From assembly GCA_044226625.1 (NCBI GenBank), contig JBGAGQ010000001.1, positions 96,001 to 160,000 of the forward strand: a DNA stretch of 64,000 bases, in the 5' to 3' direction. This document shows, piece by piece, positions 14,628-47,496 of this stretch; position 1 is the first letter of the stretch; every line of letters starts with the position of its first letter. The position numbers and the translations under genes were made by a program. The DNA comes from Thermoanaerobaculia bacterium. GTDB taxonomy: Bacteria; Acidobacteriota; Thermoanaerobaculia; Multivoradales; UBA5704. A model generated the notes under the pieces. That model was not told where the DNA came from. It did no database searches and worked only from the letters and a program-made list of their open reading frames with translations.

Positions 14628-16352
14628 TCAGCGGACGGCGAACACGTCGTCCGGGATCTCGCGGCGAATCGAGGTGTCGCGCCGGATCACGTCGGCGAGC
14701 CGCGTGTGCGAGATCTGGTTCGCCCAAGCGGGCGGAAAGTAGTTGAGGTAGAAGAAGCGGTCGCCGTCCCGCAGGCGCGTGAACTGGTCGGTCAACACGC
14801 GGCGCAGCAGCTCCCCCACGAGCCCGGGGGCGACCGGCCGCTCGGCGAGCCCACCCACCCACGGATCGATTCGGTCGACCGAGCCGTACGCCTCGGCGAG
14901 GCGGGCGGTGATCGTCGGATTCCCCGGGTTGACCGAGGCGATGTCGGGCTTCGGCGCGAGGCCGAACGCCTGGCGCACCTCGTTGTAGCTCGGCAGGCCG
15001 TGGTCGCGCCCGCGCTGGATGTTGAGCGAGGCGAGGTCGAACCCGCCTTGGCCCGGCTGGCCGAACAGGAAGTTGCGGACGTCGTCGACGATGAACGGAT
15101 CGACGTCGTTGGCGCGCTGCCGCGCGGCACCGCGCAGGAACGGCTCGATGCCGCCGCCGGCCACGAGCTCGGCCGGGTTGAAGAAGGCGTCCCGCAACGG
15201 CACGCCGCCGCCCGCGAGCGGACGGAGGTGGGCATCGAGCCGCGACAGCTCCGACGTGAGCATGCTGTGGCCGAAGCGATAGGCCGCGGTCGAGAAGGTG
15301 GCCGAGATCGTCGGATCGAGGTTCGGGTGGTAGCCGGTATAGCGGCGGAGCGCGTGCTTGCCCAGCAGGGCGGGAAGGAACTCGTTGAACGTGATCGCCT
15401 GGATCTCGCCGGTCACGAGCGCTCGGGCTCGGAGGTAGATCTCGTCGCCGGACAGCGCGGCACCCGCGCGGGTGTGGCGGATCTGGTTCGCCCAGTAGTT
15501 GTGCTCGCGCACCCAGAGCGTGTGCAGCGAGGTGAGGGCCAGGTTCTCGTTCGCGCGCACGTCGCCCGCGAGGTACATCGAGGTCGGATCTTGGCCGGGG
15601 TTGCTCGCGTTCGGCATGCCGAACGTGTTGTACGGCATCATGACGCGGCCGCCCGGACCGGCCTGCATTTTGAGCCGGCCGCTGCCGTCCGTCATGCGCA
15701 GTGCCGCGGAGCGCGCCGAGTCGGAGCCGTAGACGTTCGAGGCGTCGATCCACGCGGTGATCACGTTGTCCTGCCCGCGCGGATTGCCGGCGGCGGTGCC
15801 GGTGCCGGCGGTCGCGAGCGAGCGGCAGAGCGCGATGGTCTGGGTGCCGGTCGAGTCGGGATCGAAATACGGATCGCCCGCGGGCACTTCGACGTCGAAC
15901 GGCTGGTCGCAGCCGGTGTTCGTGAGATCGAGGTCGTGGTCGACGAATTGGCCCCAGAGCCAGACGAAGTTCGACGGACCCGTAGGCGAAAGCGTCGTCG
16001 CGGGCTGGGCGACGACCAGATTGCTGATCCGGCGCGCGCTCGGCCGGTCGGCTCCCGAGGGGGCGTCGAAGCCGTCGTCGTAAGCCGGCTCCGCCACCCG
16101 GCGCAGCTCGGCGCCCGCCGCGCCCCAGCTCGGATGCGCGAGGTTGTGACCCGTGCCGTCGATCGACGAAAACTCGTGCAGAACCAGGGTGTCGAGCGGC
16201 GGGCGGGCGAGCGCCGGGGCCGCGAACGTACCGAGCAAGACGACCCAGCCGAGCAGGACCGAGCCGAGCGGCGAGAGGCTCGACCCTGCGAAGGTGGGAG
16301 TACGGAGCCGAATCCGGAGGGCGAGACCGGGAAGGTTCCGGGTCGTGGGCAT
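14628..16352 (-). CDS. Secreted animal-type heme peroxidase (peroxidase-cyclooxygenase superfamily)
   Basis: Signal peptide (..AAPALA); WGQFVDHD distal His; GDVRANEN; REHN; AYRFGHS proximal His; NIQRGRDHG. Confidence 0.92.
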   Translation of the reverse strand: MPTTRNLPGLALRIRLRTPTFAGSSLSPLGSVLLGWVVLLGTFAAPALARPPLDTLVLHEFSSIDGTGHNLAHPSWGAAGAELRRVAEPAYDDGFDAPSGADRPSARRISNLVVAQPATTLSPTGPSNFVWLWGQFVDHDLDLTNTGCDQPFDVEVPAGDPYFDPDSTGTQTIALCRSLATAGTGTAAGNPRGQDNVITAWIDASNVYGSDSARSAALRMTDGSGRLKMQAGPGGRVMMPYNTFGMPNASNPGQDPTSMYLAGDVRANENLALTSLHTLWVREHNYWANQIRHTRAGAALSGDEIYLRARALVTGEIQAITFNEFLPALLGKHALRRYTGYHPNLDPTISATFSTAAYRFGHSMLTSELSRLDAHLRPLAGGGVPLRDAFFNPAELVAGGGIEPFLRGAARQRANDVDPFIVDDVRNFLFGQPGQGGFDLASLNIQRGRDHGLPSYNEVRQAFGLAPKPDIASVNPGNPTITARLAEAYGSVDRIDPWVGGLAERPVAPGLVGELLRRVLTDQFTRLRDGDRFFYLNYFPPAWANQISHTRLADVIRRDTSIRREIPDDVFAVR

Positions 16353-22214: not shown

Positions 22215-22424
22215 ATGCGAGCCACGGTCACCGCTGAAGTCGACGAAAAGGGGAACCTCCATCCCGACGAGCCTCTCGCCATCTCGGCTGGGGCGAAGGT
22301 ACTGATCACCGTGGTCGAATCTGGGCCGAGTGAAACGGCACTCTTGAGCGAAGCCGCTCTGGCAGAGGATTGGAACCGACCCGAGGAAGACGCCGCATGG
22401 TCACACTTGGCCCTGGAGACGTAG
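22215..22424 (+). CDS. Putative antitoxin
   Basis: Small acidic protein with LSEAALAEDW.RPEEDAAW motif; overlaps a PemK-like toxin. Confidence 0.75.
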   Translation: MRATVTAEVDEKGNLHPDEPLAISAGAKVLITVVESGPSETALLSEAALAEDWNRPEEDAAWSHLALET

Positions 22425-22738
22425 TCCTCGTACGATTTCCGTTCTCCGATCTCTCCGCGACGAAGGTTCGACCCGCCGTCGTTCTCGCATGGGTCGGGAG
22501 GTCCGACTGGATCCTCTGTCAAGTGACGAGCAACCCATATGGCGACCCGCATTTCATTCTCGTAAACAATGCCTCTTTCGCCCGCGGCGGGCTGGATCGA
22601 GACAGCTTCGCGCGAGCCGGCAAATTGTTCACCGCGGACGCCGGGATCGTGCTTCGTGCCGTCGGCTCTCTCCTGCCTCAGGCGCACCGGCTCGTGGTTC
22701 AATCGGCGGTCCGCATTCTTTCGACGGACGTCCGATAG
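22397..22738 (+). CDS. PemK/MazF-family toxin
   Basis: GDVVLVRFPFSDLS..KVRPAVVL...ILCQVTS. Confidence 0.88.
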   Translation: MVTLGPGDVVLVRFPFSDLSATKVRPAVVLAWVGRSDWILCQVTSNPYGDPHFILVNNASFARGGLDRDSFARAGKLFTADAGIVLRAVGSLLPQAHRLVVQSAVRILSTDVR

Positions 22739-22808: not shown

Positions 22809-24560
22809 TCAGCGCCCCGTTCGCCGCAAACGCCGCAGCAGACGCCGGGCGCGGAGGCGCGAGACGACGTAGGCGAGGGCGAAGAAGCCGCCGAGCGCGA
22901 ACAACCAAGGGGCGAGCTTCGGCGCGCCGGCCTGACCGGCGATCCAGGCCGCGATCGAGGAGACGATGGCCGAAACCGCGTAGGTCCGCTGCTGCCCGGC
23001 GGCATAGAGCAGCTCGACGCCGTCCGCGAAGCCGCGAATGCCCACCTGGAGCTCGCCGCGGTTCGCTTTCGCGAGCAGGCTCCGCAGCTCGGCCGGCACG
23101 CTGAGGAGCGAGGCGACGATCTCTCGACCGAATGTCTTGGCGAGGCCCACCCAGTCGCGGCCCGGGCCGAGCAGCAGCTCTTCGACGTAAGGGCGGACGA
23201 TCGCGACGGGCTTCAAGTCGGGGGCGAGGTCGTTGGCGAGGCCGACGAGCAGCAGCAGCGTGCGCTGGAGCAGGATCCACTCGCGCGGCACCGAAAACAC
23301 CGCGGTGAGGTCGCGGAGCGACAGGTCGAGCTTCGAAAGATCGGCCATCATTTCGGCCTTCATCCGCACGTTGACCTCCAGCTCTTCGAGCCGGAACGAG
23401 TCGAAGTCGAGCCCGGCGAGCAGGCGGCCGTAGAGGTAGTCGATCGCCCGACCGGCGACGTCGTCGTCCGGGTCGCGGCGGACGAAGCCCATTTGCTCGA
23501 GCGCGCCGACGATCTCGTCGCGGTCGCGGCGGAGCACCGCGCCGAGCAGGCGCGAAACCCCCGTTCTCATCCGCGGCGACAGCCGCGCCACCGCGCCGAA
23601 GTCGACGAGGCCAATCCGTCCATTGGGCAGGACCAGGAGGTTCCCCGGGTGCGGATCGGCATGGTAGAGGCCGTCGCGGAACACCATCCGGCACCAGAGG
23701 TCGAGCACGGTCTCGGCGACCGCCGCCGGATCGTGCCCGGCGGCGACGAGCGCCGCGCGGTCGCTCACCTTGACGCCGTCCAAGTATTCCGTCGTGAGCA
23801 CGCGGCGCGACGAGCGGGCCCGGACGACCGCCGGAATCGCCACCCGCGGGCTCGCGGCCCCCGATTCCGTCGCGTCTGCGCGGGCGAAATTCGCGGCGAT
23901 CTCTTCGAGCGATCGCGCCTCGCGCGAGAAATCGAGCTCCTCCTCGATCGTCTCGCGCACCTGCTCGGCGAGGTCGACGAGGCCGCGGATGCGCAGCAGC
24001 GCCTGGACCAGCCGGAGGATGCGCGAGAGCGCCGCGAGGTCGCGGCGGGCGGTCGCCTCGATCGCGTGGTGCTGGACTTTGACCGCGACGCGTAGCGGGC
24101 CGCGCTCGAGGTCGTCGAAGGTCGCGACGTGAACCTGCGCGAGGGAGGCGCTCGCGACGGGCGTCCGATCGAAGCTCGAAAACAGCTCGTCCGGGCCGGC
24201 GCCGAGCTCGGATTGGAGGCGCGCCTCGATCTCCGAGAACGGCCGCGCCGGGACGCGGTCCTGGAGCGCCTCCAAATCGGCGCGAAAATCCGCCGGCAGG
24301 AAGTTGCTGAGGACGCTCACCAGTTGGCCGACCTTGATGAACAGCCCCTGGACCTCGAGGATCGTCGTCCTGATCCGCCGTGCGCTCCGTCGATGGCAGG
24401 CGACCCTCAGCTCGGCGCGGCGGCGCTCGCCGACGAAGCGGCCGAGCGCGAAGACGCGGCCGTAGCCCAGCAGGACCCGCGCCACGGTCGCATAGACCCG
24501 GAGCCGGCGAAAACGGACGGGGGCGACGGCAGGCTCGGGCGCGGCGGGAAGTCCGGTCAT
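22809..24560 (-). CDS. ABC1/UbiB (AarF) atypical kinase
   Basis: IKVGQ, ASASLAQVH, VAVKVQ, EELDF..EA, HADPHPGN and DFG motifs; C-terminal TM helices. Confidence 0.92.
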   Translation of the reverse strand: MTGLPAAPEPAVAPVRFRRLRVYATVARVLLGYGRVFALGRFVGERRRAELRVACHRRSARRIRTTILEVQGLFIKVGQLVSVLSNFLPADFRADLEALQDRVPARPFSEIEARLQSELGAGPDELFSSFDRTPVASASLAQVHVATFDDLERGPLRVAVKVQHHAIEATARRDLAALSRILRLVQALLRIRGLVDLAEQVRETIEEELDFSREARSLEEIAANFARADATESGAASPRVAIPAVVRARSSRRVLTTEYLDGVKVSDRAALVAAGHDPAAVAETVLDLWCRMVFRDGLYHADPHPGNLLVLPNGRIGLVDFGAVARLSPRMRTGVSRLLGAVLRRDRDEIVGALEQMGFVRRDPDDDVAGRAIDYLYGRLLAGLDFDSFRLEELEVNVRMKAEMMADLSKLDLSLRDLTAVFSVPREWILLQRTLLLLVGLANDLAPDLKPVAIVRPYVEELLLGPGRDWVGLAKTFGREIVASLLSVPAELRSLLAKANRGELQVGIRGFADGVELLYAAGQQRTYAVSAIVSSIAAWIAGQAGAPKLAPWLFALGGFFALAYVVSRLRARRLLRRLRRTGR

Positions 24561-24690
24561 TGCGGCTGGGAGGGAGGTTCTTCCGCGATGTTACGACACT
24601 CGTTCTTCCGCGCGGGAAAGGGGGGAACGTTGAAAGCGGGCCGCCGCGACCCGGCTCCGAGCCGCGGCGACCCCGAGAGGCCTTCGAGTC

Positions 24691-24870
24691 CTACGGGATG
24701 CGCAACCGGCAATCGGGCGCGCAGGTGAAAACCGTGATGGTCTGGCAGATGATGGCGCAGGTGTTCGCGGTACAGACCGAGGTCACGGGAACCCCGTCGC
24801 CGCCCGTGGCGGATTCGAGGTTCAGCACGGTCTCGCGGCGAAGGTTGAGCTTGCGGTTCTGCTTCTTCAT
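24691..24870 (-). CDS. 59-aa RiPP (lanthipeptide-like) precursor peptide
   Basis: MKKQNRKLNLRRETVLNLESATGG|DGVPVTSVCTANTCAIICQTITVFTCAPDCRLRIP; AAAGGA RBS; GC3-rich codons; just below the ORF-track cutoff. Confidence 0.8.
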   Translation of the reverse strand: MKKQNRKLNLRRETVLNLESATGGDGVPVTSVCTANTCAIICQTITVFTCAPDCRLRIP

Positions 24871-25045
24871 GATCGTTTCCTTTGAAGGTCCTCACGAACC
24901 GGATGTCCGACGAGGCAAGGCGCTTCGTGTGCGCCGTCGGGTAGGGGAACGATCCGAGACGTTCGATTCCCTCACCTCGATCGAAAAGGAAATTCGCGGG
25001 CGCGCTCGCCTTGCCCCGCTCGACCGAGTCGGGTAAGGTGACTTC

Positions 25046-25471
25046 ATGACCGTGGCGGACGCGTCCTTCCCCCCGCTCGATCTGGACTCCTTCCTGCGTG
25101 ATTACGTCTGGAGCTACGAGGAGCTCAAGGCCGTCATCTGCCTCGGCACTCGGCGTGATGTCTGGTGGTCGATCGCGGCAGTCGCGAGCGACTGTAAGGT
25201 CGACGTCGACGCGGTCGTCTTCGCTCTGAATCGGCTATCCCAACTGGGCCTGTTCGCCGTGCGCGGCGCTCCCGAAGCCCTCGAGTTCAGCCTGCACGAG
25301 AATTTCCACACCCGGGCCGAGTTCTTCGATCAGCTTGCCGTAGAGTACCGGGAAGACCCTCTCCGTCTGATCGAGCTCATGACGAGGAACTCCTTCGATC
25401 GCGTCCGCACCTCGGCGCTGAAGACTTTCGCCGACTGTTTCCGCATCCGCAAGCCGAAAGAGGACCAGTGA
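25046..25471 (+). CDS. Conserved hypothetical protein, possibly winged-helix-like
   Basis: Coherent 141-aa ORF ending FADCFRIRK; GTGA overlap with the next gene. Confidence 0.7.
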   Translation: MTVADASFPPLDLDSFLRDYVWSYEELKAVICLGTRRDVWWSIAAVASDCKVDVDAVVFALNRLSQLGLFAVRGAPEALEFSLHENFHTRAEFFDQLAVEYREDPLRLIELMTRNSFDRVRTSALKTFADCFRIRKPKEDQ

Positions 25472-25731
25472 CGATGGCCCACGCGGTCTACCTCCTCTGC
25501 GCGCTCGCGAGCGTCTTCTGCGCCGGGCTCCTCACCCACAGCTATCGGCGGACACGCATCCGCCTCGCTCTCTGGACCAGCCTCTGCTTCGTCGGCCTCG
25601 CGATCAACAACCTGCTTCTGTTCGTCGACCTGGTCGTGGTGCCGGACATGAGCTTCGGCCTCTGGCGCTCGCTGTCCGCCCTCGTCGCGGTCTCGATTCT
25701 CCTGTTCGGCATGATCTGGGAGGAGCGATGA
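25468..25731 (+). CDS. Small 3-TM membrane protein (DUF5985-like)
   Basis: VYLLCAL.S..CA.LL..SY.RT..RL.LW..LCF.GLA.NN.LLFVDL..P pattern. Confidence 0.75.
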   Translation: MTMAHAVYLLCALASVFCAGLLTHSYRRTRIRLALWTSLCFVGLAINNLLLFVDLVVVPDMSFGLWRSLSALVAVSILLFGMIWEER

Positions 25732-25991
25732 CCCAGTTCCTCTCGGGCGCCTCGGCGGCGGTCTGCCTGTTCATCAGCATCTTCTTCCTCCGCTATTGGT
25801 GCACCAGCCGCGACCGCCTGTTCCTGACCTTCGCCGTCGCGTTCGGGATCTTCGGCTTGCACTGGGCGATCCTCGGCCTGGCGGACGTGCCGAACGAGTC
25901 CCGGCACTATTACTACCTGCTGCGCCTCCTCGGCTTCCTGTTGATCCTGGGGGCCGTGATCGACAAGAACCGGTCTCCCGACAAGTCCTGA
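25728..25991 (+). CDS. Small 3-TM membrane protein (DUF5985-like), paralog of the upstream gene
   Basis: FLSGA...FFLRYW..SRDRLF..FA.AF...YLLRLLGFLLIL.A.IDKNR; ATGA overlap. Confidence 0.75.
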   Translation: MTQFLSGASAAVCLFISIFFLRYWCTSRDRLFLTFAVAFGIFGLHWAILGLADVPNESRHYYYLLRLLGFLLILGAVIDKNRSPDKS

Positions 25992-26145: not shown

Positions 26146-28581
26146 ATGCACGACCTGCTCCTCGAAGCCCGACTGACGCTCCGCGGCCTCGCCCGGCAGC
26201 CGGGATTCGCCTCGACCATCGTCGTGACCCTCGCGGTGGGGATCGGCGCGAACCTCGCGTTCTTCGGTTACGCGAGCTACTTCCTCTCGCCGACGATCGA
26301 CGCGCCGGAGCCCGAGCGCGTGGTCAGCGTCCACACGGGAACCAAGGAGTCGCCCGACGGCGCTTGCTCGTATCTCGATTGGCTCGACCTCCGGGCGGGG
26401 ACCGCGAAGACCTTTTCTCAAACGTCCGCCGCCCAAGTCTTCGGCTCGTCGTTGGTCGCCAAGGAGCAGACGATCCACGCCTGGGGCACGGCGGTCTCCG
26501 GTCAATACTTCCCGCTGTTCGGCAAACCGGCACGCCTCGGCCGGCTGATCGCTCCGAGCGACGACCAGCCGGGCGCCGAGCGCGTGCTGGTGCTCAACTA
26601 TTTCTTCTGGCGGAACCGGTTCGGCTCCGATCCGACGGTCCTCGGACGGACCGTTTCGCTCGAGGGGCAGCGGACCTACCGCATCGTCGGCGTCGCCGCC
26701 GATGGATTCCAGGGCGACGGGCTAGCAACCTCGATCTACGTTCCGCTCGCGACCGCCGACGGGCTGATCCGCGGCCTCGACGATCGTTCGAGCCGGAGAC
26801 TCTCGGTGCTCGGACGGCTGCGCCCGGGCGTCACGATCGACGCCGCGCGATCGACGCTCTCCGCTCTCGCGCGCGGGCTCGACCAAGAGCATCCGGAAGC
26901 CGATCCGCGCCTCGTCTCGACCAGACCGGTCACCGAGCCCGATCCGTCGGTGCTCGCCGATCCGACCGCTCGCGCGGCCACGGGACTGCTGTTCGCGGTC
27001 GGCCTGCTGCAATTGCTCGCCTGCGCCAACGTGACGAATCTCGTGCTCGCCCGCACGGTGGCGCGGCGACGCGAGACGGCGATCCATGCCGCGCTCGGCG
27101 CGGGCCGCTGGCGGATCGGCCGGCGGCTGCTCGTCGAATCGCTGGCCCTATCGCTCGCCGGCGGCCTGCTCGGGGTCGCTCTCGCGCGCGGCATCACGCG
27201 GGTGATCGAGCACTACCTGAGCCAGGGGGTGCCGGTCGGGCTGGGCGACTTCAGCGCCGGCTCGAGCCTGATCGCCGATCCGCGCCGGACGGCCTGGTAC
27301 TTCGCCGCGCTCTGTCTCGGAACCGCGCTGCTGGTAAGCCTCGCGCCGCTCGCCCAGGCGCTGCGCAAGAACCTCGTCGGAGCCCTCAAGAGTCACGGCG
27401 AAGGGGACGGCGGCAGCCGCCGGCTCGACTTCCGGGGTCTGTTGGTGGTGACGCAGGTCGCGCTGTCGGTCGTGCTGCTGCTCGCGGCGGGGCTTCTGGT
27501 CCGCACCCGATTCGAGGTACGGAGCCAGGAGCTCGGCTTCGATCCAACGCACCTCACCCTCGTGACCCTTCACATCCCGACGTTGCGCGGCGGCGACAAC
27601 ACGAAGGGGCTCGCTCTGTACGACGACGTCCTGCGACAGGTGCGGACGCTCCCCGCGGTCGAGAGCACGGGCTTCGCCTGGCGCGTGCCACTCTCGATCA
27701 CCAACTCGACCGAGTTGGTGGCGCTGCCGGGGGCCGATCACAAAGAGGCGGTCTCGTTCAACGTGGTGAGCCCCGAGTATTTCGAGACGCTCGGCGTGCG
27801 GCTAGTTTCCGGACGCCGCCTGTCGAACGCCGACCGGAGTGAGGACGCGACCGTCGTCGTCTTGAATCAGGCCGCCGCCCAGCAGTTCTTCCCCGACGGC
27901 CAGGCGATCGGCCGTCGGTTGGAGGTAACGACAGACGAGGTTCCCGGCGGCCAGGTGGAAGTCGTGGGCGTCGTCGCCAATTCGCGATTCGGCCGGGTCA
28001 CCGAACCGATCCGGCCGCTGATCTATTACCCTTGCGCCCAGCGCTTCAAGCAGCGGATGACCCTGATGGTGCGCGCCAGCGCTCCGCTCGAGCGACCGCT
28101 CGCCGAGCTGCTGCGCCGTAGCTTCCCCGACGTCGCGGTGATCGATTTCCAGCCGATGAGCGAGCAGGTACGGCGCGCCGCCGCGGACCAGACGATGAAC
28201 GCCGACCTCGCCTCCGGCTTCGGCCTGTTCGGCTTGGGGCTCGCCGCCCTCGGTATCGTGAGCGTCCTCTCCTTCACCGTCCATCGGAGCGGCCGGGCGA
28301 TCGGCATTCGCATGGCGCTCGGGGCGAACGCGCGCGACGTGATGCTCTGGGTCTTGAAAGGTGCTGGCCGCTGGGTCGCCGCGGGACTCGCGCTGGGGCT
28401 CCTCGCCTCGTGGCCGCTGTCGCGTCTGATCGAAGGACTGCTCTATGGCGTCCCAGCCCGCGACCCGCTCACCGCGGCGGGGGTCGTCGTCCTCCTCGGC
28501 GCCGTCGCTCTCGCCGCCGCCCTCGGCCCGGCGACCCGTGCCGCCCATATCGAGCCGGTGCGGGCGCTCAAGGGGGAGTAG
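26146..28581 (+). CDS. Duplicated MacB/FtsX-type ABC permease (ADOP family), no adjacent ATPase
   Basis: PGF...TLAVGIGAN, LACANVTNL, IHAALGA, QVALSVVLL and IGIRMALGA motifs. Confidence 0.9.
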   Translation: MHDLLLEARLTLRGLARQPGFASTIVVTLAVGIGANLAFFGYASYFLSPTIDAPEPERVVSVHTGTKESPDGACSYLDWLDLRAGTAKTFSQTSAAQVFGSSLVAKEQTIHAWGTAVSGQYFPLFGKPARLGRLIAPSDDQPGAERVLVLNYFFWRNRFGSDPTVLGRTVSLEGQRTYRIVGVAADGFQGDGLATSIYVPLATADGLIRGLDDRSSRRLSVLGRLRPGVTIDAARSTLSALARGLDQEHPEADPRLVSTRPVTEPDPSVLADPTARAATGLLFAVGLLQLLACANVTNLVLARTVARRRETAIHAALGAGRWRIGRRLLVESLALSLAGGLLGVALARGITRVIEHYLSQGVPVGLGDFSAGSSLIADPRRTAWYFAALCLGTALLVSLAPLAQALRKNLVGALKSHGEGDGGSRRLDFRGLLVVTQVALSVVLLLAAGLLVRTRFEVRSQELGFDPTHLTLVTLHIPTLRGGDNTKGLALYDDVLRQVRTLPAVESTGFAWRVPLSITNSTELVALPGADHKEAVSFNVVSPEYFETLGVRLVSGRRLSNADRSEDATVVVLNQAAAQQFFPDGQAIGRRLEVTTDEVPGGQVEVVGVVANSRFGRVTEPIRPLIYYPCAQRFKQRMTLMVRASAPLERPLAELLRRSFPDVAVIDFQPMSEQVRRAAADQTMNADLASGFGLFGLGLAALGIVSVLSFTVHRSGRAIGIRMALGANARDVMLWVLKGAGRWVAAGLALGLLASWPLSRLIEGLLYGVPARDPLTAAGVVVLLGAVALAAALGPATRAAHIEPVRALKGE

Positions 28582-28969: not shown

Positions 28970-31900
28970 TTACTGAGCTCCGCGTCGCAGTTCCTTTTCA
29001 ATGCGCTCGGCGACATCGGCGACCGCCGGAGGGCTGAGGAGGCCATGGTGGTCCGCCGCGAGGGGCTCGATCTCAAACGAGCCCAGCGTGAGAGCTCGAC
29101 AATCGGCGATCTGAAGCGCGCGCAGCTCCTCGACGACCTGGGCGGACAGGTGCGCGGGTGAGGTCACCCCCTGGATCAGAAGGACCGGCGTGCGATGCGC
29201 ACGCGGCGAGAAGGCGGCGCCGCCACCGTCTCCGATCGATCTGGGGCGGTGGGTATCGAGCAGGATCAAGCGCTCGGCCGGCCGCCCCAGATCTTCGAGC
29301 CGGGCAGCCATCGCGGAGGCGAGCAGGCCGCCCGTCGACCAGCCGCAGAGCGCGAAGGGACCCTCCGGCCGATGCTCGATCAGCGCGCGGACGTGATGGG
29401 CAGCGAGCGCCTCGAAGTCGTCGAGAGGGGCAGGCGGTGCGACCGGCCAGGTAGCGCCGCCGTCGCAGGCGGACGCTTCGACACCGGGCGCCTCGAGGCC
29501 GAAGACGGCCACCCGCTCGCCGAGCCGCCAGGCGAGTTGGGCGTAACCGTGGACCGCGCCGTCGATCGCGTGGACGCAGAACAGCGCGGTCTCCAACGAG
29601 CGATCCGCCGAGCGGCTCGCCGAGAGCAGGATCGGCGCGCCGCTCGGCCGCCGCGTCCGCTCGCGGATGCGACGAGCCATCTCCTCGACCGTGCCCGCGG
29701 AGTAGAGGTCGGCCAAGCCGAGCGCGACGTCCATCCTTCTCTGGATCTCGGACATGAGCTTCACCGCGAGCAGCGAGTGGCCGCCGAGATCGAAGAAGTG
29801 ATCCGTCACCGAGACCTCGTCGAGACCGAGCGCGCGGCGCCAGATCGCGACCAGCTCGGCTTCGAACCGGTCGCGCGGCGGGACGACCGCGCGCTCTCCC
29901 CCGTCGGGCGCCGGCAGCGCCGCCCGGTCCACCTTACCGTTCACCGTCACCGGCATCGCCGCGAGGAAGACGTAGGCCCCCGGCACCAGGGGAGCGGGCA
30001 CATGCTCGGCGAGACCAGCGCGCAGGCTCGCGGGGGTGAGGCCCGAAGAACCGGAACCGGACGCGGAGCCGTCGCCCGGGCGGTCGGGCACGACGTACGC
30101 GACCAGCCGCTTCTCGCCCGGCGCGGCACCGGGGACGTCGGTTCGGGCGAGCACCGCGGCGTCGAGTACTCCCGGCTGCTCGCGCAGGTGCGCCTCGATC
30201 TCCTGAAGCTCGACGCGCACGCCGCGGATCTTCACCTGCCGATCGACGCGGCCGAGGAACTCGAGCGTGCCGTCAGCGAGGCGTCGCGCGAAGTCGCCGG
30301 TCCGATAGAGGCGCTCTCCCCCCAAGGCGGAAAAGGGATTGGGGACGAAACGCTCGGCGGAGAGGTCGGCGCGGTTCTGGTATCCGAACGTAAGCCCGAC
30401 GCCCGAGGCGAAGACCTCCCCCGCCACTCCGAAAGGAACCGGCTGGCCCGAGGCGTCGAGCAGGTAAGCGCGGGTGTTGGCGATCGGCCGTCCGATCGGC
30501 ACCGAGGGCGACCGCCCCCTTCGGTCGGCGGTCGCGGCGGAGATGGTGAGCGAGGTCTCGGTCGGCCCGTAGACGTTCACCAGGCGGGCGTTCGGGAGCG
30601 CCGAGAACACGCGTCGCGCGAGGGCGCGGTCGAGCGCCTCGCCGCCCGAGACGACTTGACGCAGGGCGGGGGCCCACGCGCCCTCTCCTGGAACCGCGGC
30701 GTCGAGCAGGGCGGCGAGGACCGAGGGGACGAAATCGGCGGCCGTCACCTGCTCCTCTACGATCGAGCGGCCGAGCCGCGCGACGTCGATGTGCTCGCCC
30801 GGCGGCGGCAGGACGATCGACGCTCCGACGATCAAAGGAGCGAAGATCTGCCAGGTCGAGGCGTCGAACCCGATCGACAGGTTCTGGAGCACGCGGTCGT
30901 CGGGCCGCAACGGATAGGCCGCCTGCTGCCAGAGCAGGCGGTTCGCGAGCCCCCGGTGGTGCATCAGCACGCCCTTGGGCTGCCCCGTCGAACCGGAGGT
31001 GTAGACCACGTAGGCGAGGTCGTCCGGCGTAGGCGCGGGCTCCCCGGCCGGCTCGTCTTTCGAGTCCGGCTCCTCCGGCTCGGCCGCTCTCGCCGCCGCC
31101 GGATCGACGACCGTTCCGCGCCAGGTGGAAGGAAGGCGCGCGGAGAGACGCGGATCGGCGATCGCGATCTCCGCCCGCGTGTCGTCGAGCAGGAAGCGTA
31201 GGCGGTCCGCGGGGTGGTCGGGATCGAGCGGCACCGCGACGCCCCCCGCGCGCAGCACCGCGAGGAAAGCAACCGGCAGATCGAGCGAACGTTCGAGGTA
31301 GATCCCGACGGGCGAGCCGAGCCGCAAACCGGAGGCCCGCATCCGGCGGGCGAGCCGCGACGAGAGCCGACCCAGCTCGCCGTAGGTGAGGGTCGCGCCG
31401 CGGAAGCGGGCACACTCGGCGTCGGGACGGAGGGCGACCTGATCCTCCACCCGGCTCGGAAGGGTGCGCGAGAGGTCGAATTGCAGGTCGTCTCCCGCAA
31501 GCTCGACCAGCAGCTGATGGCGCTCGCCGGGCGAGAGCAGGTCGAGCCGATCGAGCGGCGTCGTGGGATGCGCCGCGACGGCCGCGACGAGTGCCGCGAG
31601 CCCCTCGGCCAGACGTGCCACGGTCGCCGCTTCATAGAGATCGGTGCGGTACTCGAAGGTGCCGGAGAGTCCGTCGATCTCTTCCGTCATCGACAGGCTG
31701 AGCTCGAAGCGGGACGTGCCGCTGTGAGCTTCGGTCGGTACGATCTCGAACACCGAATCGAATCGATCGGAGCGGAACGCGTTCTGGAGCGCGAAGCCGA
31801 GCTGGACGAAAGGCATGCGGCCGCTCTCGCGCTCCGGGCGCAGCGCCTCGACCAGGCGCACGAACGGCAGGTCTTGGTGGGCGAAGGCGTCGAGACAGAA

Positions 31901-33349
31901 CTCGCGCGTAGCGGCGAGCAGCGAGGCGAAACTGCGCACACCGGTCGCGTTCTCGGCTCCGCCGCCGCACGCCGGCTCGGCCGACGATTCGTTGACGTCT
32001 AGGCGGAGCACCAACATGTTGGTAAAGAAGCCGACCAGTCCCTCGCTCGCCGGATGGAGCCGGCCGGCGAACGGCACCGAATGGAGCTGGTCGCGTTGCC
32101 ACGAGCGGCGGTAGAGCAGCGCGCCCCAGGCGGCGAGAAGGGTCATGAACAGCGTGGCGCCGTGGCCGCGGGCAAGCTCCGCCAGTCCGGCGAGCCGATC
32201 GGATGCGAGGAAGAACGAGCGGCTCGCCCCGGGGTTTCGCCCGCCGCGCCCCGCCACGGCGGCCCGATCGGCGATCCCTTCGAGGTGCTGCGGCGCATCG
32301 CGCAGCTGGCGTTCCCAGAACGACAGAAGCTCCCGGCCCCGCTCCCCCTCGATCGCCGCGTCCTGGTGGGCGGCGACGTCCGCGTACTGGAGCTCGAGCG
32401 GCAGAAACGGCGGCGGTGCGGCCGAGGCGTTGTGGCGAAACGCGCGGTAGAGAGTCGCCAGCTCGCGCAACATGACGCCGATCGACCAACCGTCGGAGGC
32501 GATGTGATGCATCGTCAGTACGAACCGATGTCCGGCGGCCCCGAGCAGCAAGCCGCCGCGGAGCATCGCGTCACGCGCGAGGTCGAAGGGTCGCCGCAGA
32601 AGTTCCTCGGTGAGCGTGTGCTCCATGCCGGCGAACCGGCGGGGATCGAGCGCCGATCCGTCGATCGTCGCAAACGGCGGCCGCAGCGCTGGATCGACGA
32701 TCTGATGCGGCTCGCCGTCGATCGCCTCGAAGCGGGTGCGCAGCACCTCGTGCCGCTCACCGAGCGCGTCGAGCGCGCGACGGAGAGCGGCAACGTCTGG
32801 CGAATGCTCGCGCAGGCGGACGACGACCAGCAGGTTGTAGCTCGCGTCCCCCGCGTCGCCCCCCTCCGCCGCCGCTCGAAGCCGATCGAGGTACCAGAGC
32901 TGGCGCTGCGCGAGCGACGCCGGGAGCGGCTCGCCCCGCGGGAGACGCACCGGACCGGGCGGAGTGCCGAGCGGGCCTTCGATCCGATCCCGCTCCCGAT
33001 CGTTCGCAGCTGCTGGACCGACGCCCCGCTCCCCTGGCTCCTCGAGCGCCCGCGCCATCGCTCCGAGCGTCGGATGCTCGAACAACAGCCGCGGCGGGAC
33101 CTCGCGCCCTAATCGCTCGCGCACGCGCAGGAGGAGCTGCAGGGCGTGGAGCGAGTGCCCCCCCGATTCGAAGAAGTCGTCGTCGAGGGAGACCTCGGCG
33201 CGGCCGAGGACCTCGCGCCAAAGGTCGGCGAGGCGCAGTTCGAGCGGACTTTCGGGCGTTCGATTCCTCCGTTCCGCGCCATCGCCGATCCGGTCGAGCG
33301 GCCCAGCCTCACCCGCCGATGCGACGGCGCACGACCCCCTGTCCGTCAC
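28970..33349 (-). CDS. NRPS, T-C-A-T-TE architecture
   Basis: GTG start overlaps the SDR stop; FFESGGHSL (T1), HHIASDGWS (C), YTSGSTGQPKG/YGPTE/YRTGD/NGKVDR (A), FFDLGGHSL (T2), GWSTGG (TE). Confidence 0.93.
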   Translation of the reverse strand: MTDRGSCAVASAGEAGPLDRIGDGAERRNRTPESPLELRLADLWREVLGRAEVSLDDDFFESGGHSLHALQLLLRVRERLGREVPPRLLFEHPTLGAMARALEEPGERGVGPAAANDRERDRIEGPLGTPPGPVRLPRGEPLPASLAQRQLWYLDRLRAAAEGGDAGDASYNLLVVVRLREHSPDVAALRRALDALGERHEVLRTRFEAIDGEPHQIVDPALRPPFATIDGSALDPRRFAGMEHTLTEELLRRPFDLARDAMLRGGLLLGAAGHRFVLTMHHIASDGWSIGVMLRELATLYRAFRHNASAAPPPFLPLELQYADVAAHQDAAIEGERGRELLSFWERQLRDAPQHLEGIADRAAVAGRGGRNPGASRSFFLASDRLAGLAELARGHGATLFMTLLAAWGALLYRRSWQRDQLHSVPFAGRLHPASEGLVGFFTNMLVLRLDVNESSAEPACGGGAENATGVRSFASLLAATREFCLDAFAHQDLPFVRLVEALRPERESGRMPFVQLGFALQNAFRSDRFDSVFEIVPTEAHSGTSRFELSLSMTEEIDGLSGTFEYRTDLYEAATVARLAEGLAALVAAVAAHPTTPLDRLDLLSPGERHQLLVELAGDDLQFDLSRTLPSRVEDQVALRPDAECARFRGATLTYGELGRLSSRLARRMRASGLRLGSPVGIYLERSLDLPVAFLAVLRAGGVAVPLDPDHPADRLRFLLDDTRAEIAIADPRLSARLPSTWRGTVVDPAAARAAEPEEPDSKDEPAGEPAPTPDDLAYVVYTSGSTGQPKGVLMHHRGLANRLLWQQAAYPLRPDDRVLQNLSIGFDASTWQIFAPLIVGASIVLPPPGEHIDVARLGRSIVEEQVTAADFVPSVLAALLDAAVPGEGAWAPALRQVVSGGEALDRALARRVFSALPNARLVNVYGPTETSLTISAATADRRGRSPSVPIGRPIANTRAYLLDASGQPVPFGVAGEVFASGVGLTFGYQNRADLSAERFVPNPFSALGGERLYRTGDFARRLADGTLEFLGRVDRQVKIRGVRVELQEIEAHLREQPGVLDAAVLARTDVPGAAPGEKRLVAYVVPDRPGDGSASGSGSSGLTPASLRAGLAEHVPAPLVPGAYVFLAAMPVTVNGKVDRAALPAPDGGERAVVPPRDRFEAELVAIWRRALGLDEVSVTDHFFDLGGHSLLAVKLMSEIQRRMDVALGLADLYSAGTVEEMARRIRERTRRPSGAPILLSASRSADRSLETALFCVHAIDGAVHGYAQLAWRLGERVAVFGLEAPGVEASACDGGATWPVAPPAPLDDFEALAAHHVRALIEHRPEGPFALCGWSTGGLLASAMAARLEDLGRPAERLILLDTHRPRSIGDGGGAAFSPRAHRTPVLLIQGVTSPAHLSAQVVEELRALQIADCRALTLGSFEIEPLAADHHGLLSPPAVADVAERIEKELRRGAQ

Positions 33350-35503: not shown

Positions 35504-37288
<1,785 letters not shown>

Positions 37289-42068: not shown

Positions 42069-42074
42069 GTTCTC

Positions 42075-44480
42075 TCAGTTGCGGGATTCTTCGGCGAGGA
42101 GCGCCTTGGCCTCGGCGAGCGAATTCAGCAGCCCCTCGTCTCCGGGGCGGTTGCGCAGCCCGGTCTCGAAGAAGGCGATCGCCCTCGAGACCTCCGGCCG
42201 CGCCGATCGCCCACGCTTTCGCTCCCAGACCGCGAGGTCGAGGTGAACCAGACCTTCGTCGTTGTCCGCCGCCGCGGAACGCGGCTCGATCCGGCGGGCG
42301 GCGCGGAACTCGCGCGCGGCCTCTTCGAGCCTGGCGCGCGGGTCTTCGCCGCGATCGATCTGGGTCTCGGCGAGGATCAGGATCGACACCCCGAGGTTCA
42401 GATGCGGCATCACCCCGTCGGGCGCCGCCGCCACCGCCTTCCGGCCGCATTCGATCGAGGCGAGCAGGCTCGGCCGGGGATCGATCCCCTGCTTCCGCTC
42501 GTACTCGGCGCTCATGCTGTAGATCGCCGCAAGGTCGTCCCATGCGGTCGAGTTGCCGGGTTCGAGCCGGAGCGCCTGGCGGGCGAGCGCCTCGGCGCGG
42601 GCGAAGATCGGCCGCGGATCTTCTTTCCCCGCCATGCGGCGGTAGCCGCGGTCGCGGTAGATCGCCGACTCGATCGCCCAGGCGCGCGCCCGCTCGGGAT
42701 CGGCGCGGCGCGCCCGACCGCAGGCGGCGACCGCTTGGGCGAACGCCGCCTCGGCGGCGGCCTCGTGCCCCTCCTCGAACGCCTGGACCTGCGCCCAGCG
42801 CCAGCATTCGGCGATGCTCACGTCGGCGTCGCTGCGCGCCACCTCGGCCGCATTCCGATAGGCGAAGAGCGCTTTCCGGAGGTCGGCGAGCGCCCCGTCG
42901 ACCCCGCCTCGCTCCCACCCCTCCTGGGCCTGGATCGCGTGGACGTCGCCTTCGAGCAGCCAAGCCTCGTAGAGGCCCGGATCGGCGCCGTAGGCCTTGG
43001 CGGCCTGGGCGAGCGCGGCGCCGTCGCGCCGCTCGTAGAAATCGATCAGCCCGAGCGCGTATGCGACCTCCGGGCTCGGCCGCGACTCGGGGTTTCGGGG
43101 CAGCGCGGCCTTCAAGTACCGGAGCGCCGGATCGCGCAGCTCCCGCTCGATCGTCCGTCGTCGCTCGGCCCGGCGCTCCGGAGAATCGAGCCGGGCGAGG
43201 GCGGCGAGCTCCGTCTGATAGAGGTGCCCGAGCGCCCTGCCGAGGTCGCTCGCGACCTGCGGCGAACGCTCCCCCGCCGCCCAGGCTGCAGTGAGGTGAC
43301 GCCGCGCCGCCGCCTCGTCGTGAAGCGCGAGATAGCCACGCCCGAGAGCCCCCTGCGCCGGAGGCCGTGCCGCACCGGGAAGGCGATCGAGCCCCGCCTC
43401 GAGCCGCAGCAACTCGGCCCGCGCCGCCCGCCGCTCCGGCCGGGTGTCGTGGAGCGGCAGCAAGTAGGCGCGACGGAGCTGCGCGGCGATCCGCTCGACC
43501 TCCTGACCGTAGCGCTGGGCCGCGACCGCGCCTCGCCGCGCCGCGAGCCGCTCGTTCCAGCCCGCGGCGAGCAGCACGGCGATCGCCGTAAACGCCGCGA
43601 CCGCGACCGCCGAGACCAACCGATGGCGTCGGACGAGGCGCGCCAGGCGTGGCATCCATCCCGGGCCGCGCGCGAGCACCCGCTCGCGGTCGAGGTATCG
43701 ACCGAGATCGTCGGCCAGGGCGCGCGCCGACTCGTAACGTCGCTCACGCTCGGGCTCGAGGCAGCGAAGGATGATCGCCTCGACCTCGGCGGGAAGCTCG
43801 GGGGCGAGCTTCCGCGGCCGCGGGGGCGCGCAGGCGAGCGCCTGCACCAGGGTCTCGGCGGTGCTCTCCCCGGCGAACGGCGGACGCCCGGTGGCCAGCC
43901 GATAGAGAACGGCGCCGAGCGCGAACACGTCGGTCCGCGCGTCGAGCGACCGCACCTCGCCGCGCGCCTGCTCGGGCGAGAGGTAGCCCGGAGTACCGAG
44001 CAGCATACCGGTCTCGGTGAGCCCGTCCGAGTACAGCTCCCGGGCGAGGCCGAAATCGACCACCCGGGGTCGCTTCGTGCCGTCGGCCGCGGTCTCGATC
44101 AGGATGTTCGTCGGTTTGAGGTCGCGATGGATCATGCCGATCGCGTGCGCGGAATCGACCGCTCCGGCGACGCGGCGCACGAGGTCGAGCCCTTCGGCAA
44201 GAGAGAGCGAGGGGGCCGCCGCTTCGAGCGTTTGTCCCTCGACGTACTCCATCGCGATGTAGGGCCGGCCGTCGAGCTCGCCCACCTCGTACACCTTGGC
44301 GACCAGCTCATGCTCCACTCGCGCCTGCGACCGCGCCTCGAGTAGGAACCGCTCGATCGATCGAGGATCCGCCGCGCGCAAGAATTTGAGCGCGACGAAG
44401 CGGCCGAGACGTGGATCGAAGGCGCGATAGACCTCTCCCGTGCTCCCCTCGCCGAGCGGCACCGCCGTTTCGAAGCGCAT
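42075..44480 (-). CDS. Hanks-type Ser/Thr kinase with TM helix and TPR repeats
   Basis: LGEGSTGEVY, VALK, HRDLKPTN, DFG and GTPGYLSPE motifs; TM LVSAVAVAAFTAIAVLLAAGW; TPR C-terminus. Confidence 0.93.
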   Translation of the reverse strand: MRFETAVPLGEGSTGEVYRAFDPRLGRFVALKFLRAADPRSIERFLLEARSQARVEHELVAKVYEVGELDGRPYIAMEYVEGQTLEAAAPSLSLAEGLDLVRRVAGAVDSAHAIGMIHRDLKPTNILIETAADGTKRPRVVDFGLARELYSDGLTETGMLLGTPGYLSPEQARGEVRSLDARTDVFALGAVLYRLATGRPPFAGESTAETLVQALACAPPRPRKLAPELPAEVEAIILRCLEPERERRYESARALADDLGRYLDRERVLARGPGWMPRLARLVRRHRLVSAVAVAAFTAIAVLLAAGWNERLAARRGAVAAQRYGQEVERIAAQLRRAYLLPLHDTRPERRAARAELLRLEAGLDRLPGAARPPAQGALGRGYLALHDEAAARRHLTAAWAAGERSPQVASDLGRALGHLYQTELAALARLDSPERRAERRRTIERELRDPALRYLKAALPRNPESRPSPEVAYALGLIDFYERRDGAALAQAAKAYGADPGLYEAWLLEGDVHAIQAQEGWERGGVDGALADLRKALFAYRNAAEVARSDADVSIAECWRWAQVQAFEEGHEAAAEAAFAQAVAACGRARRADPERARAWAIESAIYRDRGYRRMAGKEDPRPIFARAEALARQALRLEPGNSTAWDDLAAIYSMSAEYERKQGIDPRPSLLASIECGRKAVAAAPDGVMPHLNLGVSILILAETQIDRGEDPRARLEEAAREFRAARRIEPRSAAADNDEGLVHLDLAVWERKRGRSARPEVSRAIAFFETGLRNRPGDEGLLNSLAEAKALLAEESRN

Positions 44481-44713
44481 CTCCAATTCAGTATAGAGAG
44501 AGGAGCCCGTCGGCCGAACCGCCCGCCGAGAGGGTTTCGACGAGTCGCCCGGGAATCCGTCGCCAATCCACCGTTTCGATTGACACCCCGATCGGCCGTC
44601 CGTAGACTCCTCGCCGCCTCTCCCGAGAAGTCCCAGGGTCCCCCTACATCGCCGACAGCGCCGCATGATGCGGCGTCATGTGTGCCTCCCATGATGGGAG
44701 GAAGGAGGTCGGA

Positions 44714-45739: not shown

Positions 45740-45762
45740 AGGAAAACCGATCTGATGTTCTC

Positions 45763-45791
45763 AAGGGCGAGCCCGCGGGCTCGCCCTTTTT
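45763..45791 (+). terminator. Intrinsic terminator
   Basis: AAGGGCGAGCCC-GC-GGGCTCGCCCTT followed by a T run. Confidence 0.85.
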
Positions 45792-45843
45792 CATGAAAGT
45801 GGGGTGCCGGGATCTCCGCGCGCACCTGCTAGAATCCCAAGGC

Positions 45844-46044
45844 ATGCAGGACTCCTTCGTCACCCGAAAAGCTCGCCTTGCCGACCTCGACGATTCGTTC
45901 GATCGCGAGTTCTGGAGCCGCGAAACCCCATCGCGCCGCCTCGAGCTGGTGTGGGAGATTTCCGAGCGTGCGTACGCGCTCGGGGGAAAACTTCCGGATG
46001 AATCGGGACGCCCGCGATCTGTTGCGCGCCTTCATCGACCATGA
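45844..46044 (+). CDS. Small hypothetical partner of the nucleotidyltransferase
   Basis: DREFWSRETPSRRLELVWE motif; overlaps the NTase start; extended -10 immediately upstream. Confidence 0.65.
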   Translation: MQDSFVTRKARLADLDDSFDREFWSRETPSRRLELVWEISERAYALGGKLPDESGRPRSVARLHRP

Positions 46045-46450
46045 GGTCCGCTTTCTTCTGGTAGGAGCCCACGCCGTCGGCTTCTACGCGGAGCCACGCG
46101 CAACCGGCGATCTCGATCTCTTCACCGATCCGACCCCCGAAAACGCCGTACGCGCCTTTGCCGCACTCGAAGCCTTCGGCGCTCCCCTCCACGACCTCTC
46201 GACCGAAGATCTGGCCACGCCCGGGATCGTCTTCCAGATGGGATTCCCACCCTATAGGATCGATGTCCTTACCGAAATCTCGGGAGTTTCGTTCGAGGAA
46301 GCCTGGAAGGATCGCCGGTTTGCTACCCTCGGCGAGCTTCAACTGCCGGTGATCGGCCACCAAGCGCTGATCGAGAACAAGCGCGCTACCGGCCGCCCCA
46401 AAGACCTCCTCGACCTCGACCTTCTAGAAAAACACGGCGGTCCTCAATAG
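45998..46450 (+). CDS. Nucleotidyltransferase-fold protein (putative TA component)
   Basis: FLLVGAHAV...PRATGDLD, RIDVLT and LIENKRATGRPKDLLD motifs. Confidence 0.85.
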   Translation: MNRDARDLLRAFIDHEVRFLLVGAHAVGFYAEPRATGDLDLFTDPTPENAVRAFAALEAFGAPLHDLSTEDLATPGIVFQMGFPPYRIDVLTEISGVSFEEAWKDRRFATLGELQLPVIGHQALIENKRATGRPKDLLDLDLLEKHGGPQ

Positions 46451-46488
46451 GGACTCCCTGGCAAGGGAGGGTCGCCCGAGTCCCTGTC

Positions 46489-47496
46489 CTACCGCCGCTC
46501 TCCCCGCACGAAGCTCCAGCCGAAGCGGCCTTTGACGCAGAGGTTTCCCGAGGTCACGAACTGGTCGAGAGGTGAGGTGACCTTGACGATCTTCTCGTCC
46601 TGAGCGTGCAGCGTCAGGGTGCAGCCGACGCCACAGTAGGGGCAGATGGTGTCGGTCGTGGACTGCTTCGATTCGTCCCAGTTCCCTTCGGCGCGGAGAT
46701 CGTGCTCGGCCTTGCCCATCAGCGCTCCGGTCGGGCAGACGCCGATGCAGTTGCCGCAGAAGACGCAGGCCGATTCGGGCAGCGGCACCGCGTACTCGGT
46801 CGAGATCCGCGCGTCGAAGCCGCGACCCGCGACCGCGATCGCGAAGGTGTTCTGGGCGTCCTCGCCGCACGCCTCGACGCATTTGTAGCAGAGGATGCAC
46901 TTGCTGTAGTCGCGCACGTAGAGGTCGTTGTCGACCTTCACCGGCTGATGCACGGTACCGGCCGTCGCGCCGTCCCCCGCCTCGTGAGCGCCCGGCCGCG
47001 CGGCATCTCGCTCTCCGGCGCTCGCGCGCGGCGCGGGAGGGCCGAAACGCTCGGGCTTCGCGCCGTAACGAACCATGTACTCCTGGATCGTTGGAGCCGT
47101 CGATACGTCCACCGACGAGGTGAGCAGCTCGAGCACCATCCGACGCGCGAGACGGACCCGCTCGGAATCGGTCCGGATGACCATCCCCGGCTCGACCTTC
47201 CGGGAACAGGCCGGCACCAGCGTGCGCGACCCTTCGAGCTCGACCACGCAGATGCGGCAGACGTTCACGGGTTCGAGCGTTTCGAGGTAGCAGAGCGTCG
47301 GCGTGTCGATGCCGATCGAGCGTCCGGCTTCGAGGATCGTCCGGCCCTGCTCGACCGCGACGGCGGCGCCGTCGATCGTGATCTCGACCTTCGGCCGCTC
47401 CGCACGTTCCGGCAAGATCGGGAGCGGACCGCGCGGTACCGGAATGCGCAGGTCGGGAGCTGCCGTGGGGCTCGGCTGGCCCGGCTGTTCGATCAC
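46489..47496 (-). CDS. Fe-S subunit of formate dehydrogenase (NuoG/FdsA N-terminal-like)
   Basis: PTLCY..NVCRICVV..PAC (2Fe-2S); CILCYKC and CVFCGNCIGVCP (4Fe-4S); C-terminal CPYCGVGC...LCVKGRFG; GTGA overlap. Confidence 0.9.
   Translation of the reverse strand: MIEQPGQPSPTAAPDLRIPVPRGPLPILPERAERPKVEITIDGAAVAVEQGRTILEAGRSIGIDTPTLCYLETLEPVNVCRICVVELEGSRTLVPACSRKVEPGMVIRTDSERVRLARRMVLELLTSSVDVSTAPTIQEYMVRYGAKPERFGPPAPRASAGERDAARPGAHEAGDGATAGTVHQPVKVDNDLYVRDYSKCILCYKCVEACGEDAQNTFAIAVAGRGFDARISTEYAVPLPESACVFCGNCIGVCPTGALMGKAEHDLRAEGNWDESKQSTTDTICPYCGVGCTLTLHAQDEKIVKVTSPLDQFVTSGNLCVKGRFGWSFVRGERR

Follow-up and report, generated by a model that had tools for sequence, protein, structure and literature searches.

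The stretch of Thermoanaerobaculia DNA analysed here (64 kb, hereafter the window) carries a short reading frame that had been proposed, from its letters alone, to encode a RiPP precursor with a double-glycine leader and a core rich in Cys and Thr. The locus raises the question of whether such a frame is a gene at all, and by what means its product might be matured in a neighbourhood that holds no recognizable lanthipeptide enzyme. As judged from sequence comparison, the precursor gene is a stand-alone member of a known leader superfamily that carries a new and rare core.

The precursor gene and its signals

The frame occupies positions 24691..24870 of the minus strand exactly as described in the original prediction: it has 59 codons, the first of them an ATG, and a TAG stop, giving a peptide of 59 aa. 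Going upstream, the frame meets a stop after 8 codons, and the interval contains no ATG, GTG or TTG, so that this ATG is the sole possible start. The good ribosome-binding site that had been claimed was recovered as a Shine-Dalgarno-like AAGGA, read from the sequence at 24878..24882 (minus strand) with a spacer of 7 nt to the ATG. On the other side of the gene, a GC-rich hairpin of 16 bp at 24638..24673 (minus strand), found in both the MFE and the centroid fold, begins 17 nt past the stop codon and is followed by GCUUUC. This hairpin is probably a terminator with a weak U tract, and the gene would then probably have a terminator of its own. The T-run criterion for terminators yielded no sites, the hairpin failing it as well, and the whole 140-nt stretch that holds the hairpin folded no better than shuffled sequences (z 0.07). 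Downstream of homologous peptide genes, a terminator-like site was found in one related locus (L001) and none was called in another (L002). A sigma-70 promoter scan returned no sites, and sigma-54 -24/-12 elements, searched for in front of the gene, scored 7/12 at best, which is ordinary for the window. No Rfam family and no tRNA gene were detected in the window.

The possibility that 24691..24870 is a chance ORF in GC-rich DNA, and no gene, had to be weighed, given that the region holds 85 ORFs of at least 30 aa in 10 kb and that the GC content of the window reaches 68.6%. The GC content by codon position (0.50/0.50/0.90, hence a GC3 of 0.90) is not decisive by itself, since a 218-aa Arg-rich ORF on the opposite strand (24380..25036, plus strand), which runs across the peptide gene and into the first part of the neighbouring kinase gene, has the same wobble phase. 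This antisense ORF is a typical artefact of GC-rich DNA and could mislead gene callers. Evidence against a chance origin comes, however, from homologues as well as from the Shine-Dalgarno site in front of the ATG. A phmmer search of 1.84 billion representatives returned four proteins at E up to 0.001, the query included, of which P0002 (E 1e-6) and P0003 (E 5.2e-6) are true relatives. The remaining protein, P0004 (279 aa, E 6.9e-5), is repetitive and aligned with residues 16-43 alone, and was excluded as an artefact of repeats. With profile searches and a scan of genomes, the query's family grew to eight sequences (P0001, P0002, P0003, P0005, P0006, P0007, P0031 and the L001 peptide), seven of them relatives of the query, with a conserved leader and core, at least three distinct core subgroups, and intact frames, start sites and Shine-Dalgarno sites. 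A purine-rich site also lies 5' of the start in all eight related loci described below.

Furthermore, the peptide genes of L001 and L002 differ by synonymous changes in 14 codons and by non-synonymous changes in 12 (dN/dS 0.29), an excess of synonymous changes that speaks against a chance ORF. The combined pattern of leader, GG and short ORF, which was written post hoc, turned up once when the window was read in six frames, and in just 2 of 100 dinucleotide shuffles; the window holds a single copy of the gene. The public protein collection contains an identical 59-aa protein, so some gene caller has predicted this ORF. Thus 24691..24870 is a small but real gene that has a ribosome-binding site of its own, and the chance-ORF reading, to which we assign a very low probability, is already close to refuted. 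Searches with the single peptide were less informative: a word-indexed search returned the self-match only, the PDB gave no sequence match at E up to 10, and an atlas search produced weak leads (0.83-0.85), one of them a cluster with 63% Lant_leader_dom.

Leader and core of the encoded peptide

Residues 1-24 (24799..24870, minus strand) form the leader, which ends in T-G-G and contains L8-x-L10-x-R12-x5-L18. It reads L8-N-L10-R-R12-ETVLN-L18, with Arg in place of the Lys of the LxLxKx5L motif, and the query falls within that motif as defined for class I precursors. LxLxKx5L was reported as a leader motif of class I LanAs and described for Bacteroidetes (Walker 2020, PMC7268733); according to the relevant passages of that paper, Gly-Gly is a frequent end of such leaders, and a C39 protease a frequent member of the cluster. 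The association of K-L-x-L-x-(K/R)-E-T leaders with lanthipeptides, which the original prediction had put forward as established, is in print for class I, together with the GG ends and the C39 protease (PMC7268733).

The only NCBIfam models that matched the query were class I lanthipeptide leader models, namely NF038153 lant_leader_L1a (16.9 bits, E 0.0054, below the cut-off of 22; residues 1-19 on profile positions 1-22 of 32) and NF038158 (12.2 bits, E 0.15). No match was found to TIGR03949 (lactobin A/cerein 7B) or to the radical SAM target model TIGR04149 (GG_sam_targ_CFB) in NCBIfam at E up to 1, nor to PF10439 (Bacteriocin_IIc) or any other Pfam model at E up to 10. The Pfam set used gave no PF28317 (Lant_leader_dom) match in any of 13 peptides, LanBC-linked ones included, and probably lacks this model. 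As a precomputed label, PF28317 is attached to 28 of the 120 listed proteins of the leader superfamily, none of them from the query's family.

When the same 13 peptides were scanned with the L1a model, six passed (those of L003-L008, 24.0-37.9 bits). The other seven belong to the query's family, all of whose members except P0031 were covered by the scan; six scored below the cut-off (13.8-21.1 bits) and P0003 had no match. In an alignment of 13 peptides, the LanBC-linked ones included, K3, K7, L8, L10, R12, T14 and L18 are invariant. The leader of the query's family is 5 residues shorter than the standard L1a leader, and in the alignment the missing residues fall in the part bounded by L18 and the acidic residue in front of the cleavage motif. 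Judged by these comparisons, residues 1-24 are a shortened form of the LxLxKx5L...G-G leader of class I lanthipeptides of Bacteroidota and Myxococcota.

The double-glycine designation holds for the query and does not extend to its relatives: position -2 is G in three of the eight family members, A in four and S in one, whereas G24 at position -1 is invariant. GG is thus a feature of the query and not of its family, in which only the Gly at -1 is fixed. The alignment places the probable cleavage site after G24. Canonical C39/PCAT leaders are described as having Gly at -2, Gly, Ala or Ser at -1, hydrophobic residues at -4, -7 and -12 and an acidic residue at -8 (Bobeica 2019, PMC6363468). Against this pattern, as given in that source, G-1, G-2, A-4 and L-7 of the query fit and N-8 and E-12 do not; the LanBC-linked leaders of the Kofleriaceae relatives fit in full (L-12, D-8, M-7, I-4, GG). 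The description of the leader as typical is not borne out in that form: the leader is 5 residues short, scores below the L1a cut-off and has neither Leu at -12 nor an acidic residue at -8 (PMC6363468).

The leader superfamily is already known and curated; of 399 candidates from a profile search, 151 had an E of 0.001 or less. Among the 120 relatives listed, seven carry the NCBI name 'class I lanthipeptide', Thermoanaerobaculia and Acidobacteria records among them. JGI names seven of the 120 'predicted metal-binding protein' and four 'lactobin A/cerein 7B family class IIb bacteriocin', the latter name being given by NCBI to one further protein.

The core comprises residues 25-59 (35 aa; 24694..24798, minus strand), and the 5 Cys, 6 Thr and 1 Ser that had been counted in it were confirmed. 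Across the eight family members the invariant core columns are P28, T30, S31, C33, C42, T46 and C50, which in the whole peptide are preceded by the invariant K3, K7, L8, L10, R12, T14, L18 and G24. Six of these seven core columns are Cys, Ser or Thr (binomial 0.015, with relatedness ignored). In all eight members each Cys has a Ser or Thr 1-5 residues upstream, and Ser and Thr together are at least as numerous as Cys. Such a spacing of Ser/Thr donors and Cys acceptors is compatible with ring formation and is no proof of rings. The Cys count is even (4 or 6) in seven of the eight, which represent only three independent subgroups, and odd in the query. No relatives of the core were found outside the eight sequences, and on this comparison the core family appears new and rare.

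Loci of relatives and the search for enzymes

The window was searched for the enzymes that such a precursor would call for. Pfam detected no Lant_dehydr, LANC_like, LanM, Radical_SAM or Peptidase_C39 domain in 41 window ORFs, NCBIfam found no RiPP enzyme in 23 further ones, and the best tblastn match of three LanB and two LanC proteins to the window had an E of 0.085; the largest stretch of the window without a scanned ORF is 45740..47492 (1.75 kb). These searches bear out the earlier statement that LanB/C/M, radical SAM and C39 genes are absent from the 64 kb. GMC oxidoreductase, radical SAM and YcaO genes were likewise missing from the Pfam and NCBIfam scans of the window. An 863-aa Ser/Thr kinase at 42075..44666 was considered as a class III/IV synthetase and set aside: it lacks a LANC_like domain, and its similarity to LanL (96 bits against a cut-off of 650) and LanKC (46 bits against 575) is confined to their kinase parts.

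The gene nearest to the peptide gene on the same strand encodes an ABC1/UbiB-type kinase (22809..24560), 130 bp downstream and beyond the hairpin. Its position and strand, together with an ABC1 domain (219.9 bits) and weak matches to APH (E 9.2e-5) and to the LanKC catalytic loop (E 0.021), would be the grounds for a local modification by phosphorylation and elimination, as in class III-V lanthipeptides. The kinase has, however, no lyase or cyclase domain, and the 16-bp hairpin separates it from the peptide gene. ABC1 kinases are common genes of housekeeping type. When seven window neighbours, this kinase among them, were compared by tblastn with the eight related loci, none gave a match at E 1e-3, so that the pairing of peptide and kinase is not conserved. 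Local modification by this kinase is accordingly most improbable.

Several other features of the neighbourhood were recorded. A spacer of 175 bp separates the peptide gene from a divergent unit of three genes with overlapping start and stop codons (25046-25991, plus strand), which encodes a 141-aa protein and two 87-aa membrane proteins with DUF5985 and is followed by an ADOP permease. The 141-aa protein belongs to a widespread hypothetical family (atlas 0.96) with a weak 15% lead to MarR_2, and its single-sequence AlphaFold model (pLDDT 39.3) was too poor for a fold search. ADOP-type duplicated MacB/FtsX permeases are encoded at 26146-28581 and 53516-55960 (both plus strand), no ATPase gene being seen beside either; the first scored 701.9 bits with TIGR03434 (cut-off 622.3), and the second matched only Pfam MacB_PCD and FtsX. 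From sequence alone, that TIGR03434 score and the origin of the nearest relatives would point to an acidobacterial genome, perhaps one of Thermoanaerobaculia. A small non-ribosomal peptide locus lies 4 kb from the peptide gene. Its NRPS ORF (28970-35368, minus strand) carries PP-binding, condensation, AMP-binding, PP-binding and thioesterase domains, and upstream of it are an SDR and a 2OG-Fe(II) oxygenase adjoining an FHA-sigma-54 activator (35504-37288).

Further away, 14628-16352 (minus strand) encodes a full-length homologue of animal haem peroxidases (PF03098, E 1.8e-144) in this bacterial genome. Toxin-antitoxin-like pairs were found on the plus strand at 125-627 (YefM/YoeB), 22215-22738 (a RelN-like antitoxin with a 122-aa partner of no known family) and 62309-62826 (a RelE/StbE-like toxin with a 78-aa partner). 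The stretch 38507-45739 holds genes for a DUF6345 protein, a protein of 833 aa to which neither Pfam nor NCBIfam assigned a family, the 863-aa Ser/Thr kinase and an M35 (aspzincin) peptidase.

A scan of genome contigs with an alignment of five sequences matched 214 stretches, of which eight encode relatives (L001-L008); the genome of the window is absent from these loci. Three of them are from Thermoanaerobaculia MAGs (L001, L002, L005), two from Acidobacteriota MAGs (L003, L004) and three from Kofleriaceae MAGs (L006-L008). Each of the three Kofleriaceae loci has four tandem genes for peptides with the same leader type (L006:9790-10700; L007:8940-10441; L008:10001-10890), immediately preceded upstream by LANC_like and Lant_dehydr_N/C genes (E down to 2.7e-158). 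The one peptide scanned per locus passed the L1a model in each case (24.0-32.8 bits). The presence of the same leader type beside LanC and LanB in these three loci supports the original prediction of a lanthipeptide-type leader. One of the tandem copies in L007 (10001-10195) has a core with zero Cys. Peptidase_C39 was found in none of the eight related loci. In particular, no C39 exporter is encoded within about 10 kb of LanBC on either flank of L006 and L008, or upstream in L007, whose sequence stops about 0.4 kb beyond the peptides.

The five acidobacterial loci (L001-L005) contain one peptide gene each, and no LanB, LanC, LanM, radical SAM or C39 gene was found among the ORFs scanned in any of them. 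The flanks covered were about 7 to 10 kb on each side in L003 and L004, and 10 kb upstream and 3 kb downstream in L002; L001 and L005 are short contigs of only 4.3 and 3.0 kb. A tblastn search for LanB/LanC remnants in these loci gave a best E of 0.085. Linkage to LanBC is thus seen in none of the four independent acidobacterial contexts (the window, L001/L002, L003 and L004/L005). Similarity between the DNA of L003 and L004 is confined to the peptide gene (168 nt, 75.6%), and therefore the gene travels without an enzyme partner. Since none of the seven window neighbours has a homologue in the related loci, the acidobacterial peptide genes stand alone, and their neighbourhoods are unrelated.

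The synteny of L001 and L002 is broken only by a 2.5-kb insertion with a methylase gene, 3' of the peptide gene: in L002 (10290-12687) a C-5 cytosine DNA methylase gene and a gene with an MTaX1 domain lie between the peptide gene and an alpha/beta hydrolase gene, which in L001 follows directly 3' of the peptide gene. The alpha/beta hydrolase was rejected as a conserved neighbour, its position reflecting the synteny of two close genomes and the gene being absent from the window. The peptides of L003-L005 (L003:10001-10192; L004:10001-10189; L005:1508-1696) belong to a family whose L1a leader is complete (27-38 bits) and whose core conserves six Cys spaced 3-5 apart; this family too is encoded by a stand-alone gene, with no LanBC in the flanks of about 7 to 10 kb in L003 and L004.

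Proposed maturation in trans and its alternatives

Our comparative analysis leads us tentatively to a reading in which the stand-alone precursor is a lanthipeptide matured in trans, its shortened L1a-type leader being read by a remote LanB/LanC pair that would install (methyl)lanthionine rings before cleavage after Gly24. In such a pathway the leader would be recognized by a LanC-type cyclase and a LanB-type dehydratase whose genes would lie outside the window; Thr and Ser would be dehydrated and Cys thiols added to give (methyl)lanthionine rings, with T30/S31 to C33 and T46 to C50 as plausible pairs; and the leader would be removed after Gly24 during export. What is inferred here is the modification in trans as such, along with the ring pattern, the site of cleavage, and the export and activity of the peptide. 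This reading rests on the homology of the leader, on the linkage of such leaders to LanBC in Kofleriaceae, Myxococcus and Steroidobacter and on the conservation of Cys, Ser and Thr in the core. The Myxococcus and Steroidobacter examples come from the supplementary table of Walker 2020, which gives LanC-linked class I precursors of Myxococcus fulvus and Steroidobacter with L-x-L-x-R-E-T-L leaders and a GG end (PMC7268733).

Within the class Thermoanaerobaculia itself, a cluster has been described that forms lanthionine rings on a Cys-rich core (PMC13083261). The dN/dS of 0.29 is further support for a lanthipeptide matured in trans, as are the NCBI names of seven of the 120 listed relatives and the precedent for remote helper proteins provided by the Kofleriaceae loci, where no C39 gene was found near LanBC. 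Against it stand the four acidobacterial contexts without the enzymes, the 64-kb window among them, the short leader with its score below the cut-off, and the even Cys counts, which would suit disulfides as well. In the examined part of the table of Walker 2020, 'Acidobacteria' occurs once, for a class II precursor (PMC7268733).

Comparison with known systems shows where the query departs from them. With the class I LxLxKx5L precursors (NF038153; PMC7268733) it shares the M-K-K start, K-L-x-L-x-R-E-T, the L at +5, small residues at the leader end with Gly at -1 and a Ser/Thr/Cys-rich core. It differs from them in its L1a score (16.9 bits, below the cut-off of 22), in the 5 missing residues, in a GG that its own family does not conserve, in the lack of LanB, LanC and C39 genes in 64 kb and in a core whose relatives are limited to the family of eight. 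The acidobacterial Cys-rich peptides with a full leader (L003-L005, P0012, P0026, P0041, P0047 and others) share with the query the phylum, the leader superfamily and the stand-alone gene; they differ in their complete leader, in an unrelated core with Ser-Cys and Gly-Cys pairs and in the much larger size of the family, and go under the names 'class I lanthipeptide' (NCBI) or 'predicted metal-binding protein' (JGI).

Prochlorosins and other Nif11-type precursors, which are encoded far from LanM and missed by cluster-based mining (PMC7268733), provide the model for maturation in trans. Unlike the query, they are class II (LanM) peptides of cyanobacteria with a long Nif11 leader and many copies per genome, whereas a single copy is found here in 64 kb. 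The ThaA/ThaM/ThaO lanthipeptide-thiazole system (PMC13083261) comes from an uncultured member of the same class as the genomes of the closest relatives and likewise combines a leader with a Cys-rich core, but there the precursor gene shares a cluster with genes for a GMC oxidoreductase and a class II synthetase; this system was compared by its published description only.

It is possible, and almost as likely as modification by LanBC in trans, that the gene is real and its product no lanthipeptide. The leader would then serve recognition by an exporter or peptidase only, or would recruit a different remote enzyme, and the product would be disulfide-bonded, metal-binding or otherwise modified, for instance by thiazoles on Cys. 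The four acidobacterial contexts without LanBC and the gene that travels without an enzyme partner between L003 and L004 agree with such a product, as do the even Cys counts in seven of eight family members and the metal-binding and class IIb bacteriocin names among the 120 listed relatives. Moreover, the peptides of L003 and L006 touch the radical SAM target model TIGR04149 (13.6 and 15.9 bits, below the cut-off of 25), so the leader type is not exclusive to LanBC. A precedent for other chemistry on Cys is the GMC oxidoreductase of a tha-homologous cluster, which is described as making thiazoles on a Cys-rich precursor without a lanthionine synthetase (PMC13083261). On the other hand, a plain disulfide peptide would not need the invariant T30, S31 and T46 beside invariant Cys, and the query itself has an odd number of Cys, 5. 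The query also matched no model of unmodified bacteriocins or radical SAM targets at E up to 1, and GMC oxidoreductase, radical SAM and YcaO genes are absent from the window scans.

The gene might also be a relic, a precursor left behind after its cluster was lost or moved, which may still be expressed and has no current maturation pathway. The single copy in the window, the lack of enzymes nearby and the shortened leader with its score below the cut-off would suit this view. A relic is nevertheless unlikely, considering that at least three distinct core subgroups have been kept with intact frames, starts and Shine-Dalgarno sites, that the dN/dS is 0.29 and that no LanB/LanC pseudogene fragments were detected by tblastn (best E 0.085).

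Returning to the lanthipeptide reading, a wider proposal can be attached to it, which we regard as rather doubtful: Acidobacteriota may keep scattered sets of stand-alone precursors with L1a leaders that are matured in trans by one remote LanB/LanC set or by an unrecognized leader-reading enzyme. The family of eight and the larger Cys-rich family with full leaders may be such sets and, by analogy, a class I counterpart of prochlorosin-style combinatorial biosynthesis.

What is new at this locus is the rare core of eight sequences, the leader that is shorter by 5 residues and escapes the curated model, and the repeated stand-alone placement in Acidobacteriota; in the literature searched, no paper was found on stand-alone precursors of class I type in this phylum. 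Mining based on clusters finds precursors next to enzymes only and would miss the query and its acidobacterial relatives. Annotation pipelines would leave the query unnamed, since its score lies just under the cut-off of the curated leader model. If these peptides are no lanthipeptides, the NCBI name 'class I lanthipeptide' is premature for the stand-alone acidobacterial relatives. If they are matured in trans, the shortened leader would show which part of the L1a leader is needed. Acidobacteriota are already regarded as a phylum rich in natural products, and with maturation in trans their RiPP products would outnumber what counts of biosynthetic gene clusters suggest.
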